From Bacilli bacterium (GTDB lineage: Bacteria; Bacillota_I; Bacilli_A; RF39; UBA660), in assembly GCA_017938725.1 (NCBI GenBank), contig JAGBAW010000010.1:1-63140 (forward strand): a DNA stretch of 63,140 nt, read 5' to 3'. Within the stretch, counting starts at the first letter, position 1. Each line of letters begins with the position of its first letter. The position numbers and the translations under genes were made by a program. The notes below the pieces were generated by a model. The model searched no databases. It worked only from the letters and a program-made list of their open reading frames with translations, and was not told the DNA's origin. This document shows positions 27,418-37,476 of the stretch, piece after piece.

Positions 27418-27494
27418 GCCTCAATAGCTCAGCTGGATAGAGCAACGCCCTTCTAAGGCGGCGGTCAGGGGTTCGAATCCCTTTTGGGGCACCA
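27418..27494 (+). tRNA. tRNA-Arg (anticodon UCU), CCA encoded
   Basis: Hand-folded cloverleaf. Acceptor GCCTCAA/TTGGGGC, D-arm GCTC..GAGC, anticodon stem ACGCC/GGCGG with loop CT-TCT-AA, T-arm AGGGG-TTCGAAT-CCCTT, then A-CCA. Confidence 0.85.
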
Positions 27495-27505
27495 TTGGGA
27501 AATCT

Positions 27506-27523
27506 GTTCTAACTTTTTAGAAC
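27506..27523 (+). terminator. hairpin downstream of tRNA-Arg
   Basis: GTTCTAA-CTTT-TTAGAAC followed by TTTAT. Confidence 0.45.
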
Positions 27524-27539
27524 TTTATATACAAAAAGT

Positions 27540-27569
27540 ATCAATTTCAAAAGAAGTTGATATTTTTTT
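27540..27569 (+). terminator. intrinsic terminator
   Basis: ATCAATTTC-AAAA-GAAGTTGAT 9-bp stem followed by ATTTTTTT. Confidence 0.7.
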
Positions 27570-27594
27570 GTGATTAGAGAAAGGACAGATAAAA

Positions 27595-27870
27595 ATGGTA
27601 AGTATAGTTAGTAAAGAATTACACTTTGATGAAGAATTAAAAAAGAAAATAGAATTTATATGCGATTTTTGTAATACTAAACCAACAATTATAAATGGGT
27701 GTATTAAGAATATTAAGCGAACAAATCTCTCATATATAGAACCTCATAGAGTTATTATTAAAGGTATTACATTTCTAGTATTTAACTATTCTAAAACTAT
27801 TTATATTGGGAATTTAAGAAATAGTATTGAAATAAAAGATTTAGAAAGTTTTATTAAGTCATTAGATTAA
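27595..27870 (+). CDS. hypothetical protein (island-proximal)
   Basis: 91 aa ORF. Its first ~14 codons and upstream region are duplicated at 37146. Confidence 0.4.
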   Translation: MVSIVSKELHFDEELKKKIEFICDFCNTKPTIINGCIKNIKRTNLSYIEPHRVIIKGITFLVFNYSKTIYIGNLRNSIEIKDLESFIKSLD

Positions 27871-27935
27871 ATCTATTAAAATAATCAACTTCTTTCAAAA
27901 TCGCCTTAAAATAGGCAAAATTTGGCAAATATGTC

Positions 27936-27963
27936 TTGACTTTAGAATTGAAATATCTATAAT
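27936..27963 (+). promoter_or_regulatory. promoter of the recombinase leader
   Basis: TTGACT, 16 nt spacer, TATAAT. Confidence 0.5.
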
Positions 27964-28003
27964 AAGTAGCCAAGAAACAAGTTTTATGTTTTTGGGGGTT
28001 AAT

Positions 28004-28078
28004 ATGAAACGAAGTTTAAATTATATTAATACAACTTATTTAGATTTTAAGAGGTGTCAAAGGCATAAAAATATTTAA
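28004..28078 (+). CDS. putative leader peptide (24 aa) upstream of the serine recombinase, not in ORF track
   Basis: GGGGG RBS, then ATG MKRSLNYINTTYLDFKRCQRHKNI. Its last codons form the 5' arm of the 28051-28095 hairpin. Confidence 0.3.
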   Translation: MKRSLNYINTTYLDFKRCQRHKNI

Positions 28079-28100
28079 TGTGTCTTTGTCACCTCTTTTT
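28051..28100 (+). terminator. terminator/attenuator hairpin in the recombinase leader
   Basis: GAGGTGTCAAAG...CTTTGTCACCTC (one mismatch) followed by TTTTT, about 35 nt before the recombinase ATG. Confidence 0.55.
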
Positions 28101-28134
28101 AGGTTTCAAAGATAAAAAGGAGGATTAGAATTTA

Positions 28135-34890: not shown

Positions 34891-35002
34891 GTCAAGGGAA
34901 CTTGCATAAAATAAAAAAGGAACATTCAATATGCCGATGTTGAGTGTTGCCATTTAAATGGTTACCACCTAAATCATTGGATGAGTTAGGTGGATTTCTT
35001 TT
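34891..35002 (+). ncRNA. putative antisense RNA (type I antitoxin) convergent with the small toxin ORF
   Basis: Promoter TTGTCA (34856-34861), 17 nt spacer, TATTAT (34879-34884). Terminator CCACCTAA..TTAGGTGG (34965-34993) + TTTCTTTT, ending at the toxin stop codon. Confidence 0.5.
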
Positions 35003-35084
35003 ATATTAGTGTTATAAATAACAATAATAGTAAAAGGAAGATAATAATTACTAGAGCAAAGATTAATAAATCTTTCTTGTTCAT
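35001..35084 (-). CDS. putative type I toxin, 27-aa hydrophobic peptide (not in ORF track)
   Basis: GGGAGG RBS 7 nt before ATG. MNKKDLLIFALVIIIFLLLLLLFITLI. Own promoter TTGCCT, 17 nt spacer, TATAAT (plus-strand 35176-35148). Minus-strand terminator hairpin 34919-34951 + T-run. Confidence 0.55.
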   Translation of the reverse strand: MNKKDLLIFALVIIIFLLLLLLFITLI

Positions 35085-35285
35085 TGTATCGCCTCCCTTC
35101 TTTTATGAAGTTTGGCTCCACCCAACTTATTAAATGTTCCTATAAAAATTATAGCAAACGAATGTTTATAAGGCAATGATTTTATACTAAATTATGGCAA
35201 TTTAGTAAATACACTTGTATAATGACATTATCATTATATATAAAAGTATTAATTTATTACTTTTGAGTTTTAGGGAGAAAGTAAG

Positions 35286-35777
35286 ATGAAACCAGAAATT
35301 AGAAAAAGAAGAATTGATGATTCGGAGGAATTAGCCCATGCTATTGCTATAGTATGGAATACAACATATAAAGGGATTGTAGATGATGAATTTCTAATAG
35401 GATTATTGAACAGTGAAAAACAATCAGCAGAAAGATTAAAAAATAATATAAATGAGCAACCATATTATTATGTCCTAATATTACAAAATAAAATAATTGG
35501 TTGGATCTATTTTACACTGGATAGTGATAAATATGAAAACTCAGCAGAAATTCATTCATTATATATTTTAAAAGAATATCAAGGAAATGGTTATGGTAAA
35601 TTATTATATAATTATGCAGTTAAGAATATTTTAAAAAATAAAATTAAAAAAGTAATAATCGGATGTTTGGATAGAAATCCATCTAATGATTTTTATAAAC
35701 ATCTTGGTGGAAAATACATAGGTAACCATTTATTTAGAGAAAAATATTTAGAAAACATATATTTATTTGAGCTATAG
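35286..35777 (+). CDS. GNAT family N-acetyltransferase
   Basis: 163 aa. YILKEYQGNGYGKLLY is an acetyl-CoA binding Q/RxxGxG/A-type motif. Confidence 0.75.
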   Translation: MKPEIRKRRIDDSEELAHAIAIVWNTTYKGIVDDEFLIGLLNSEKQSAERLKNNINEQPYYYVLILQNKIIGWIYFTLDSDKYENSAEIHSLYILKEYQGNGYGKLLYNYAVKNILKNKIKKVIIGCLDRNPSNDFYKHLGGKYIGNHLFREKYLENIYLFEL

Positions 35778-35865
35778 AAAAATATAATAAGTTGTTGAAC
35801 GTTCTTCCCAATGTCATCAGTTTAAGAAATTATAGAAAAAATTGTGTGAGAGTGAAAATAAATCC

Positions 35866-35924
35866 GTGTAAATAAAAATCTTTCCGTGATAAAATAGAAG
35901 AAATGGAGAGATTTTTATTTACAC
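35866..35924. repeat. 15-bp perfect inverted repeat with 29-nt spacer
   Basis: GTGTAAATAAAAATC (35866-35880) pairs with GATTTTTATTTACAC (35910-35924). The flanks extend the pairing imperfectly. Confidence 0.6.
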
Positions 35925-36023
35925 ATAATTTTTTACACACTCTAACTAGTAGTATGCAATTAAAATTTTTGATATAATAAATATGGCAAATAAGATCGTG
36001 TTTATTGTTTGGAGGTAGAGAAA

Positions 36024-36920
36024 ATGAATAAAAAAGTATTTGCAATTATTGAAATAGGCAGTAATAATACCAAAACTCATATTTATGAAGCTGAAAAAGT
36101 AATATATGAAAATAATACTACAATAGAATTTAAGAAAAATTATCAAATTGAAAGTAAAATAAATGAAAGTGATTTGAATAAGTTGTTTATAATAATTCAA
36201 AAAGCATTAGAATATACAAGTGATATTCATATATATGGTTGCAGTATCTTTAGAAATATCAAAGAAAATGAATTAGATGATATTAACTCAAAACTAAAAA
36301 GCAAGTTTAATGTACAAATAGAAGTCGTATCACAAGATGATGAAGCTCGCTATACAGCATTAGGTTGTTATAATAATATAAATTATGATGGCAATGTATG
36401 TGTATTTATTGGTGGCGGAGGTTCTATTGAACTTATATTTATTAATAATAAAAAAGTCATTGATAAAAAGTATTATAATTTTGGTGTAGTAGATATTACC
36501 AAAAAGTTCGATAGTTTAAAAGAAGATATTCCTACCTGTACTTTTGATGAAGTATATAATTATGTTAATGAATTAATAGGAAATATAGATGTAAAAGCTG
36601 ACATTTTAATTTTAGCTGGTGGAGATCATTTGTATTGGTACAATAATGCTGGTTATAAATTGTTGGAAAATACTCTGTATAATTGTGAAAATCAAAAATA
36701 TATGATAACAAGAGAAATAAGTGATAATTATGATCATGATGCTCTTATTACTTCTTTAGATAGAATAAGAGCAAATAGTGATAACCCCCTTTGGTTTGAT
36801 GGCTCAAGGGCAATGAAAGTTATTACAAATTTAATATCACATAAGATTGATTCAAAGTATATAGTCCCTACTAAAATTAATATGGAAGATGGACTAAAAA
36901 ATAACATTTTAAAATCGTAA
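36024..36920 (+). CDS. Ppx/GppA-family (ASKHA fold) phosphatase-like protein
   Basis: FAIIEIGSNNTK (phosphate-1), VVSQDDEARYTALG and VFIGGGGSIEL (phosphate-2). ATG 36024 follows GGAGG. Confidence 0.6.
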   Translation: MNKKVFAIIEIGSNNTKTHIYEAEKVIYENNTTIEFKKNYQIESKINESDLNKLFIIIQKALEYTSDIHIYGCSIFRNIKENELDDINSKLKSKFNVQIEVVSQDDEARYTALGCYNNINYDGNVCVFIGGGGSIELIFINNKKVIDKKYYNFGVVDITKKFDSLKEDIPTCTFDEVYNYVNELIGNIDVKADILILAGGDHLYWYNNAGYKLLENTLYNCENQKYMITREISDNYDHDALITSLDRIRANSDNPLWFDGSRAMKVITNLISHKIDSKYIVPTKINMEDGLKNNILKS

Positions 36921-36995
36921 AATAATATTTTATAAAAAATGAAAATCAATAAAACTATTTTAAAGAAAAGTATTTATTGTTAAAATAATGTTGTA

Positions 36996-37195
36996 ATTGA
37001 TATTTATCAATCTACTTTTGTGCAAGAGTTCAAAATAAGCTCTTTTATCGCACCGCTTAAAAATCTATTCTAACTTTTGTTAGATTTAAACATATAGTAT
37101 CAACTTCAAAAGAAGTTGATATTTTGTATTTAAGAAAGGACAGATATGGTAAGTATAGTTAGTAAAGAATTATACTTTGATGAAAAACTAAAAAT
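36996..37195 (+). repeat. junction module 4 (GCACC at 37050-37054) fused to a ~140-bp diverged copy of the tRNA-Arg downstream region
   Basis: ATTGATA/TATCAAT and AAGAG/CTCTT hairpins, then TATCGCACC. 37055-37195 then aligns with 27495-27645, including both terminators, the RBS and the first codons of orf 27595. Confidence 0.65.
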
Positions 37196-37211
37196 AATAA
37201 TAAATAAATGA
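37146..37211 (+). pseudogene. truncated duplicate of the 5' end of ORF 27595-27870
   Basis: MVSIVSKELYFDEKLKIIINK* versus MVSIVSKELHFDEELKKKIEF... Confidence 0.6.
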
Positions 37212-37337
37212 TTTAGTTGTTTCAGTAGATATGAACTCTTGGAATGATTTAGGAGAGCATTTAATTGGTCTATCAATTGAAAAAGATCCAGTTAAAAGAT
37301 TAAAAAAAGATGATGAATGATGTATTATAATTATTTT

Positions 37338-37476
37338 AAGAAATTGATGCAAATATTGTATTAATTCCTAATTTTGCAAAAAGTTGTAGATAACAACCGC
37401 TATCGCACCATAGGGAAATTAGTTGAACTAATCGACTTTAAATATATGAAGGGTTAATTTCGGTTAACCTTTTTAT
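37338..37476 (+). repeat. junction module 5 / right island boundary (GCACCA at 37405-37410) plus terminator
   Basis: Near-identical copy of module 1 up to GCACCA. TAGGGAAATT then resembles the TTGGGAAATC that follows the real tRNA. Terminator AAGGGTTAA/TTAACCTTT + TTTT at 37449-37476. Confidence 0.6.

Follow-up and report, generated by a model that had tools for sequence, protein, structure and literature searches.

In the ssrA islands of Dehalococcoides, a CcrB-like large serine recombinase (LSR), DsiB, is encoded beside attL, and the islands lie in tandem, with 20-bp repeats of the tmRNA 3' end (PMC3146451). Fifteen of 31 such islands are without an integration module and were interpreted as cis-mobilizable elements (CIMEs) (PMC3146451). 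In a survey of integrative mobilizable elements (IMEs), those at tRNA 3' ends all use a tyrosine integrase and those with a serine recombinase insert inside genes, disrupting them; Tn4451 and Tn4453 are Clostridia IMEs that encode a serine recombinase (PMC5704250). Tycheposons have a lineage-specific tyrosine recombinase and replication hallmark genes and use one tRNA per integrase clade, an LSR being present in 27 of 937 (bioRxiv 10.1101/2020.12.28.424599). Integration at tRNA genes is regarded as a hallmark of tyrosine integrases; here, a serine recombinase family of hundreds of gut species appears to use encoded CCA ends. We analyzed a 63,140-nt stretch of DNA (contig JAGBAW010000010.1 of assembly GCA_017938725.1, a Bacilli bacterium of GTDB lineage RF39; UBA660), hereafter the window, and consider it highly probable that the region behind its tRNA-Arg(TCT) gene is a tandem array of LSR-type integrative elements. 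Full-text literature searches gave no description of this LSR family, an absence there not being proof of absence.

tRNA-Arg(TCT) is the sole tRNA that ARAGORN finds in the window. By sequence reading, its 3' end is G71-C72-A73-C74-C75-A76 and the CCA is genomically encoded. An earlier reading of the letters alone (the sequence-only reading) had noticed that the terminal hexamer of this tRNA recurs on the same strand and partitions the DNA that follows into cassettes. The sites are real: GCACCA lies on the + strand at 27489, 33174, 33854, 34805 and 37405, and GCACCg at 37050, all between open reading frames (ORFs). In the whole window we counted 17 copies against 5.9 expected, a number attained by none of 100 shuffles. 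In the intergenic DNA of the island (2,434 nt), four + strand copies compare with 0.11 expected (Poisson P = 6e-6; P = 9e-5 when the observed rate outside the island is used), and this excess confirms both the coordinates and the enrichment. The statement that every copy is intergenic holds for the junction copies but missed a seventh same-strand GCACCA at 34144-34149, inside the DUF488 ORF (34030-34686) and without junction flanks, which looks like a chance coding occurrence. Three further + strand copies fall within 1.4 kb at 9477-9518 and 10875, far from any tRNA.

The sequence-only reading had overlooked that the flanks of the sites are themselves repeated. Taking the sequence left of a GCACC(A) site as a 'right end' and the sequence right of it as a 'left end', 27495-27651 is similar to 37056-37202, so that about 150 nt to the right of 27494 are repeated to the right of 37055; 33104-33179 is 90-97% similar to 37336-37410, about 75 nt to the left of 33179 being repeated to the left of 37410; and 33174-33202 is similar to 34805-34833 (29 nt, 93%). 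Because the flanks are repeated, each GCACC(A) can be read as the right end of one element, a core, and the left end of the next. The junctions proposed earlier stand, while the array extends beyond its proposed limit at 37413, since 37411-37533 is the left end of yet another family. Chance recurrence of a hexamer in AT-rich intergenic DNA would suit a short motif with 17 copies across the window, but we regard it as vanishingly improbable given the P value for the intergenic copies and the repetition of 40-150 nt of flanks. Moreover, over 100 other sequences contain the same joints, the core with both of the flanking motifs described below being found in 37 cases on the + (element) strand and in a single case on the - strand. 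The units so delimited and their contents are listed in Table 1. Relatives of the window LSR were collected as 465 stretches of species-representative genomes, and the best 80 loci, without exception from gut 'Bacilli/Tenericutes' metagenome-assembled genomes (MAGs), were analyzed.

Table 1. Features of the array behind tRNA-Arg(TCT), in window coordinates
Feature	Position	Strand	Remarks
tRNA-Arg(TCT)	27418..27494	+	ARAGORN; Rfam tRNA 63.9 bits; chromosomal target, B arm; unit A begins at 27495
Unit A, predicted autonomous integrative mobilizable element, 5,685 nt	27495..33179	+	99.98% copies in L105 and L108; left end found after many tRNA CCAs
Left-end hairpin 1	27506..27523	+	GTTCTAA/TTAGAAC; overlaps AACTTT of P' arm
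Left-end hairpin 2, terminator-like	27540..27569	+	ATCAATTTC/GAAGTTGAT then T7; sequence reading
orf91, small conserved left-end gene	27595..27870	+	homologues at left ends of LSR-bearing and LSR-less units
Large serine recombinase (LSR), 639 aa	28135..30054	+	Pfam Resolvase 1.3e-34, Recombinase 2.2e-18, weak Zn_ribbon_recom; phrog_95 integrase 1e-110
Mob_Pre / MobV-type relaxase, 448 aa	30257..31603	+	Pfam PF01076 3e-16; NCBIfam MobV match below cutoff
Two cargo ORFs, 237 and 230 aa	31667..33074	+	common only to L013 (96%) and L027 (76%)
Right end (P arm) of unit A	33140..33179	+	AAAGTTGT at 33149-33156, terminating ..CTATCGCACCA; 97% repeat at 37380-37410
Unit B, 680 nt, without LSR	33180..33859	+	B-type left end GATTGATAGGAAACTCGAAC, B-type right end AAAGTTGTT..GGGCACCA; 157-aa ORF 33355-33828
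Unit C, 951 nt, without LSR	33860..34810	+	DUF488-N3a gene 34030-34686 (Pfam)
Unit D, 2,245 nt, without LSR, B-type left end	34811..37055	+	GNAT 35286-35777; Ppx/GppA-like 36009-36920; 27-aa peptide 35084-35001 (-)
Unit E, 355-nt miniature	37056..37410	+	TTGAGCAATCTATTCTAAC-subfamily left end and first orf91 codons, joined to A-type right end; interior deleted
Unit F remnant, ~123 nt	37411..37533	+	left end TAGGGAAATTAGTYGAACTAATCGACTTT and terminator hairpin, fourth LSR-element subfamily; matches L083, L063, L008, L007

Unit A recurs elsewhere as a discrete block. A 99.98% identical copy, covering exactly positions 1-5685 of the unit, is present in L105, a contig of 284 kb that comes from another sample and has unrelated flanks; the right end of another unit precedes this copy and a different, 1,273-nt unit follows. 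L108, a conspecific strain, is 99.9% identical to the window over 8.7 kb that include the GerM flank, the tRNA-Arg gene and unit A (the last at 99.98%), and departs from it about 40 nt past the right end of unit A. The start of the next unit in L108 resembles that of a full-length B-type element and has an orf91 homologue (92% to L021), unlike the 680-nt unit B that occupies this place in the window. A CACCA stands at each end of unit A, and the identity to the L105 and L108 copies is confined between the joints. According to the ORF list, unit A contains orf91, the LSR, the Mob relaxase and two small ORFs only, hence a relaxase without a conjugative pore, and neither the ORF list nor Pfam gave a second Resolvase-domain ORF in it. 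With its own recombinase, a relaxase lacking a pore and short direct repeats as att boundaries, unit A would be classed from its sequence as an IME.

Gain or loss of a whole unit is also seen beside a tRNA-Thr gene. L090, L094 and L104 share, at 99.2-99.8% identity, a 2,886-nt LSR-less unit encoding orf93 and a 751-aa protein. This unit adjoins a tRNA-Thr gene in L090 and L094; in L104 a 6,568-nt unit with a Mob relaxase and an LSR 65% identical to that of the window lies between the same tRNA-Thr end and the LSR-less unit. The difference between L104 and L090/L094 is a precise gain or loss at the tRNA-proximal joint. A 628-nt relative of the 2,886-nt unit, with ends 94% and 85% identical, is found at a different tRNA-Thr. 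The orthologous tRNA-Arg beside the GerM gene is empty in L086, where a native terminator follows the CCA, and carries a different array in L085. Genes downstream of the window array are not syntenic with L085 or L086, and the distal chromosomal boundary after 37533 was not found by this comparison. An exact-protein look-up of the GerM flank returned the window contig and short fragments but no strain variants; a look-up of the LSR did give some. Thus individual units are present, absent or replaced between the same junctions (L104 versus L090/L094; L108), and serial insertion at a tRNA 3' end, the first of three possibilities raised by the sequence-only reading, is borne out by units that are discrete, recur elsewhere, and are gained, lost or replaced.

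The LSR itself is tied to tRNA ends. In about 60 of the 80 loci the LSR element starts immediately behind the terminal CCA of a t(m)RNA gene (left-end variants TTGGGAAATCTGTTC.., TTGAGCAATCTATTC.. and TTGACGAATCTGTTCGAAC..), with the LSR gene in fixed orientation about 640 nt from that CCA end. A curated census holds 62 junctions at t(m)RNA ends: 18 at Leu (caa, gag, tag), 13 at Thr (cgt, ggt, tgt), 12 at Gly (ccc, gcc, tcc), 6 at Arg (ccg, cct, tct), 6 at Cys and 7 at tmRNA-like genes. At 6 of the 7 tmRNA-like loci, ARAGORN places the end of a tmRNA gene exactly at the joint. The target range thereby comprises at least 13 tRNA anticodon classes (Arg, Leu, Thr, Gly and Cys) plus tmRNA. LSRs 94-98% identical to the window LSR lie at seven genes (Thr-ggt, Thr-cgt, Arg-tct, Arg-cct, Leu-tag, Leu-caa and tmRNA), and target promiscuity, to judge by these identities, is a property of one LSR lineage rather than of many specialists taken together. 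The B-type (GATTGATAGGAAACTCGAAC) and F-type (TAGGGAAATTAGTCGAAC) left ends mark additional LSR-element subfamilies, whose full-length members encode their own LSR (L009 and L006 for the B type), in one case together with Mob_Pre; in L063 an F-type left end is followed by an orf91 homologue and a 593-aa LSR. Each left-end subfamily is paired with its own LSR clade.

These observations overturn an earlier doubt as to whether the LSR could be the actor at all, which had arisen from the association of tRNA ends with tyrosine recombinases. It could be supposed that another enzyme, a tyrosine integrase or a Xer-type host recombinase encoded elsewhere, makes the joints: tyrosine integrases classically target tRNA 3' ends, the Islander paper states that no serine recombinase is known to use tDNAs as targets (PMC4383910), and our recombinase search of the window outside the island was not exhaustive. 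We hold this to be highly improbable. The distance and orientation of the LSR gene to the joint are constant in about 60 independent genomes, every left-end subfamily tracks its own LSR clade, and a 5-nt identity block within palindromes of about 55 bp fits LSR sites, not tyrosine-integrase cores with arm sites. It is therefore the LSR to which we would ascribe catalysis.

To describe the site, a consensus was built from 34 distinct right ends, 59 tRNA/tmRNA ends and 61 left ends. It gives ..gaaAAAGTTGTAgAtaaCtacc.CtAtcGCACCA for the P arm, GTTCgA.TC....gCaCCA for the B arm and ttg.gaaAtctgtcc.aActtTT for the P' arm. Counted from the CCA end, the attP motifs are AAAGTTGT at -31..-24 and AACTTT at +17..+22, and AAAGTT together with AACTTT makes up an imperfect palindrome, about 55 bp long, whose centre is C72. 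Of 49 P arms selected solely by the left-end motif of the following unit, 32 have their GTT starting at -28 and 7 at -29. In the tRNA arm the T-loop GTT stands at -24, and the P-arm GTT is thus 4-5 nt further out. Large serine integrases use an attP of about 50 bp and an attB of about 40 bp, each an imperfect palindrome with a 2-bp crossover in the middle, and in attB the distal motif lies further inward. In a listeriophage (LI) integrase, the motif bound by the zinc ribbon domain (ZD) is 5 bp further out in attP than in attB (PMC3783163), and by analogy the GTT shift may be likened to that ZD shift; with so short a shared motif, this point is no more than supportive. The idea that units C and D end in leftover 3' halves of tRNA genes was rejected, since their GTT stands at -28 (the attP register, that of the tRNA being -24) and both right-end types recur elsewhere as element ends.

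The two ends of a unit agree within narrow limits. The discriminator N73 matches at both unit ends in 37 of 37 cases, and in the LSR clade found at Gly and Cys tRNAs, which end in CTCCA, the right ends end in GCTCCA. In 10 of 28 units the tRNA and the right end differ at position 71, and identity between the recombining partners is restricted to the 5 nt C72-A76. From the limits of this identity block and the centre of the palindrome, a crossover at C72-N73 is the likeliest position, to which we would give an even chance. Two other positions were rejected: A76/+1, because a left end and the chromosomal flank of the same unit do not share their first post-CCA base (T versus A in L042, for example), and 71-72, in view of the mismatches at position 71. 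No common motif was found in the chromosomal sequence downstream of the arrays, where the B' arm is without conservation, and for this reason the tRNA-derived arm seems to carry the specificity, probably independently of the downstream arm. The suggestion that the junctions are structure-specific sites of a cassette system was right in that they are recombination sites; what seems to define them, however, is the sequence of an LSR-like att palindrome and not a fold.

The layout first proposed for each junction, a T-arm-like hairpin, GCACC(A) and a terminator-like hairpin with a T-run, survives in part. The downstream hairpin is real and conserved: in an anchored per-sequence fold with a count of pairs, hairpin 1, whose stem begins about 11-13 nt past the CCA, was recovered in 71 of 72 distinct left ends, several stem positions showing compensatory changes (GC/TA/AT), and its mean z is -3 against shuffles. 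It is GC-poor and frequently has no T-run, and a simple terminator scan called it at no joint, so that 'terminator' remains a guess for it. RNAalifold on a MAFFT alignment of left ends gave no structure, as the loop lengths of the left ends differ. The scan did call hairpin 2 of unit E (37096-37123), and a second, T-run-bearing hairpin is typical of A/E-type ends. The upstream hairpin, on the other hand, is not conserved (mean z = -1.7), many variants, such as GTTGTAGATAACTATC, being unable to pair; upstream, it is the sequence motif RGTT (-28/-29 relative to the CCA end) that is conserved. The left-end hairpin could replace the terminator of the tRNA, insulate the element or bind a protein.

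A conserved, covarying hairpin after every joint, joints that terminate in CCA, and the co-orientation of all units with the tRNA would also suit a role at the RNA level, with the joints acting as tRNA-like punctuation for RNase P/Z processing or 3'-end protection of cassette transcripts. This third possibility of the sequence-only reading is very unlikely. Only the genuine tRNA is matched by ARAGORN and by Rfam at E<=1, neither of which found a tRNA-like element at the internal joints. The supposed T-arm hairpin is the part that is not conserved, right ends have no 5' acceptor strand, and the presence/absence data fully account for the joints as DNA recombination sites.

We propose that the LSR recombines the P/P' site of an element with the 3' end of a tRNA or tmRNA gene, strands being exchanged within C72-A76, so that GCACC(A) would be the identity block (C72-N73-C74-C75-A76) remaining at each joint. 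attB would essentially consist of the T-arm and the 3' strand of the acceptor. The tRNA would stay intact because the element brings only the sequence following the CCA, and many tRNAs, or tRNA ends already occupied, would be usable as targets because the post-CCA sequence appears unconstrained. Repeated insertions, mostly at the tRNA-proximal joint, may then build the array. The most decayed units of the window are the distal ones, with a mutated core at D/E, the interior of E lost and F truncated, a pattern that fits insertion at the tRNA end displacing older units outward. Cell-to-cell transfer would presumably occur through mobilization by the MobV relaxase.

Several points weigh against this account. 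To our knowledge, canonical phage LSRs do not recombine attP with attL, and because they reject attL, insertion beside a resident unit would need relaxed site rules or heterotypic neighbors. Ccr recombinases also act on non-canonical site pairs. Adjacent units with the same left-end type occur once in 37 pairs of neighbors, a scarcity that would be expected, on a purely speculative view, if a resident unit of the same type blocked re-use of the site. For Tn4451, neither integration nor excision by its serine recombinase requires a directionality factor (PMC5704250). The discriminator rule has an exception, the only one seen, in that the joint before unit A at L105 7354-7360 (the same in L109 and L111) is GGCGCCA and not GGCACCA; owing to this CGCCA joint, the crossover position is not fixed. 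The register argument from a 3-nt GTT is weak alone, and the function of the conserved left-end hairpin is left unexplained by the proposed scheme. The sequence-only reading had suggested a search for circular junctions, and it gave none: the right-end/left-end joint is present in 18 metagenome contigs, all of which are arrays, and none of the 18 is circular or has terminal overlaps. Finally, the junction sets were curated with motif filters and are partly circular in consequence, and the evidence base consists of assemblies, mainly MAGs.

The LSR-less units B, C, D and E have a core and recurring left- and right-end types on both sides (the core of the D/E joint being CACCG), and neither the ORF list nor Pfam shows recombinase or transfer genes in them. 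The right-end type of unit B is also found in L009, L013, L017, L021, L024 and L070; the left-end type of unit C recurs in L070 and its right-end type in L069; the right-end type of unit D, whose right junction core has decayed to CACCG, is also in L091; and the left 150 nt of unit E are 81-84% identical to left ends at many loci. These units would be non-autonomous relatives of LSR elements, or deletion derivatives retaining both arms, that are either carried in cis in the manner of CIMEs or moved in trans by a resident LSR. We put forward trans-mobilization tentatively, as somewhat less probable than not.

Decay in place may by itself have produced them, full LSR elements having lost genes in situ and left LSR-less units as dead CIMEs, immobile in cis and in trans. 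By its sequence, unit E is clearly such a product, evidently an internal-deletion derivative with both ends of an LSR element. Unit B plausibly derives from decay of an autonomous element, its ends matching those of the full-length B-type LSR element of L009. Unit F is a truncated end, the junction core at 37050 is mutated, no circles were found, and for tandems of this sort the accepted interpretation is the CIME model (PMC5704250; PMC3146451). Other features do not suit decay alone. LSR-less lineages have right ends of their own (GTGATGGTTTCGGACTATCTTAACTATCGCACCA; GGGTTCGGTATCTAACC..) that were not observed on LSR-bearing units and stand at varied tRNAs and array positions, one left module of 120-420 nt is joined to differing cargo, and the RGTT and AACTTT motifs are preserved in register at the ends. 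On balance we think it possible, and rather doubtful, that decay in place accounts for all of them. We attach a similarly low probability to a more far-reaching form of our proposal, an integron-like cassette platform run by the LSR in which the universal T-arm/acceptor DNA of t(m)RNA genes would be a single sufficient half-site, whatever follows the CCA, and small LSR-less cassettes with P/P' arms of 25-30 bp would be excised and re-inserted singly in trans. Were this so, any tRNA with the right discriminator, and also the front of resident units, would be an insertion site, and the tRNA end would be a stack of exchangeable single-gene cargo spread among gut Bacilli by relaxase mobilization.

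Domain searches confirmed the labels LSR, Mob_Pre, DUF488-N3a, GNAT and Ppx-GppA that had been proposed from the translations, while 'transglutaminase-like' and 'P-loop' found no match in Pfam or NCBIfam. The 237- and 230-aa cargo ORFs of unit A gave no match in Pfam, NCBIfam or PHROG, and in the same three collections the sole family match of the 157-aa ORF of unit B is phrog_4182, a PHROG of unknown function. orf91, likewise without a match in Pfam, NCBIfam or PHROG, is a candidate directionality factor or regulator. A gene of this type, about 91-97 aa long, occupies the left end of LSR-bearing units in each subfamily examined (unit A; L031, L063, L104), for instance at 27595-27870 of the window, L094 4242-4523 and L063 16127-16420. 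It is retained in the LSR-less 2,886-nt and 628-nt units, and its first codons persist in unit E.

Further observations concern cargo and its upstream regions. The 751-aa cargo of the 2,886-nt unit (L094 4600-6855) has about ten HTH-like repeats of the form 'Y(K/Y)G(I/L)PL..YC' followed by a C-terminus like sigma-70 region 4. In unit D, the 27-aa hydrophobic peptide MNKKDLLIFALVIIIFLLLLLLFITLI (35001-35084, - strand), with a GGAGG-type ribosome-binding site upstream, resembles a type I toxin. The surrounding left module of unit D (400 nt) is joined to other cargo in L017, L024, L026 and L013, at 72-75% identity. A 48-nt direct repeat (33260-33307 and 35190-35237, 83%) with promoter-like hexamers inside lies upstream of the cargo of units B and D; pieces of it are found upstream of cargo in L006, L013, L024, L060 and L078, and a promoter or operator common to the cassettes is one possible function. 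Within unit D, a 38-nt inverted repeat (35848-35942; 82% complementary, 19-nt spacer) separates the GNAT and Ppx-like genes; its sole database match is a weak and presumably spurious plant microRNA model, and it could represent a hidden joint that has decayed or else a regulatory element. IS110-family and DDE transposase genes lie within B-type LSR elements (L009 15999-17201; L006 19538-20812), from which it follows that ordinary insertion sequences also reshape the arrays. A 7-kb LSR-less B-type unit (L071 4872-11917) encodes a regulator of AraC/Cass2 type, an ABC exporter and an ABC1-family kinase; Cass2 denotes the 'integron-associated effector binding' domain. In the window at large, GC content is about 25%, nearly all genes are on the + strand, and GC skew is positive in almost all 1-kb bins, with the cumulative skew climbing steadily; from skew and gene orientation, the window would lie on the leading strand and have a very strong gene-strand bias.

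Island finders that seek tyrosine integrases and long tRNA-fragment repeats would miss arrays of this kind and so leave a portion of the accessory genome in uncultured gut Bacilli without annotation. For recombinase biology, the arrays raise the question of how an LSR accepts so many targets and tolerates tandem insertion, and the integrase is a possible engineering tool whose landing pad exists in every CCA-encoding bacterium. The cargo of LSR-less units (DUF488, GNAT, Ppx-like, toxin-like peptide, ABC transporter, sigma-like regulator) illustrates the packaging and exchange of single genes.

Among described systems, the ssrA islands of Dehalococcoides are the nearest precedent, and staphylococcal cassette chromosome (SCC) arrays are also close. 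With the Dehalococcoides islands the array shares an LSR gene beside attL, a tRNA-like 3'-end target, tandem units of which some have no recombinase, cargo and a presumed capacity for mobilization. Those islands, however, have a single-copy ssrA target, a 20-bp repeat and a small serine recombinase partner, DsiA, whereas here at least 13 tRNA classes and tmRNA are used, the shared block is 5 nt and the LSR is alone; the array also has a MobV relaxase and units down to 0.35-1 kb. The window LSR is not a CcrB, CcrC or XisF equivalog in NCBIfam, scoring 118.7 bits against a cutoff of 900 for CcrB and 84 against 900 for CcrC. Like the array, SCC/SCCmec at rlmH arises by LSR insertion at the 3' end of a gene without disrupting it, and its tandems mix recombinase-bearing and pseudo-SCC units with short repeats between them (in part after PMC3146451). 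SCC/SCCmec differs in its protein-coding target, its Ccr recombinases (CcrAB/CcrC) and the lack of a relaxase, where the array has tRNA targets, a non-Ccr LSR and a relaxase. Tn4451/Tn4453 encode the LSR TnpX and the Mob/Pre relaxase TnpZ and insert with low specificity, flanked by GA dinucleotides and not at tRNA ends. They resemble unit A in this LSR plus Mob_Pre relaxase module, in their low-GC Firmicutes hosts and possibly in needing no directionality factor for excision and integration; unlike the array, they form no tRNA-anchored arrays and no LSR-less cassettes. The accretion of IMEs and CIMEs in Firmicutes (PMC5704250) likewise combines a recombinase and a relaxase without a conjugation pore with tandem decayed elements that keep their att sites. 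In contrast to the IMEs of that survey, the LSR here targets the tRNA end and leaves the tRNA intact.

Tycheposons are similarly tRNA-anchored islands made by repeated integration, newer units pushing older ones outward, with degenerate remnants, partial tRNA repeats and cargo forms. The array has an LSR and, in place of replication genes, a relaxase, and a near-identical LSR lineage stands at seven t(m)RNA genes; a Pfam search of the array ORFs gave no match to a primase, helicase or polymerase. To integron cassettes the likeness is one of layout only, in short, mostly single-gene, co-oriented and promoter-bearing cassettes with recombination sites behind one chromosomal anchor. The joints here are LSR-type palindromes, with no IntI and no folded attC, and no tyrosine recombinase was found in the array by ORF list or Pfam. 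Set beside these systems, the array is LSR-driven accretion at a t(m)RNA 3' end, set apart by its broad tRNA range, its 5-nt identity block and its very small LSR-less units.

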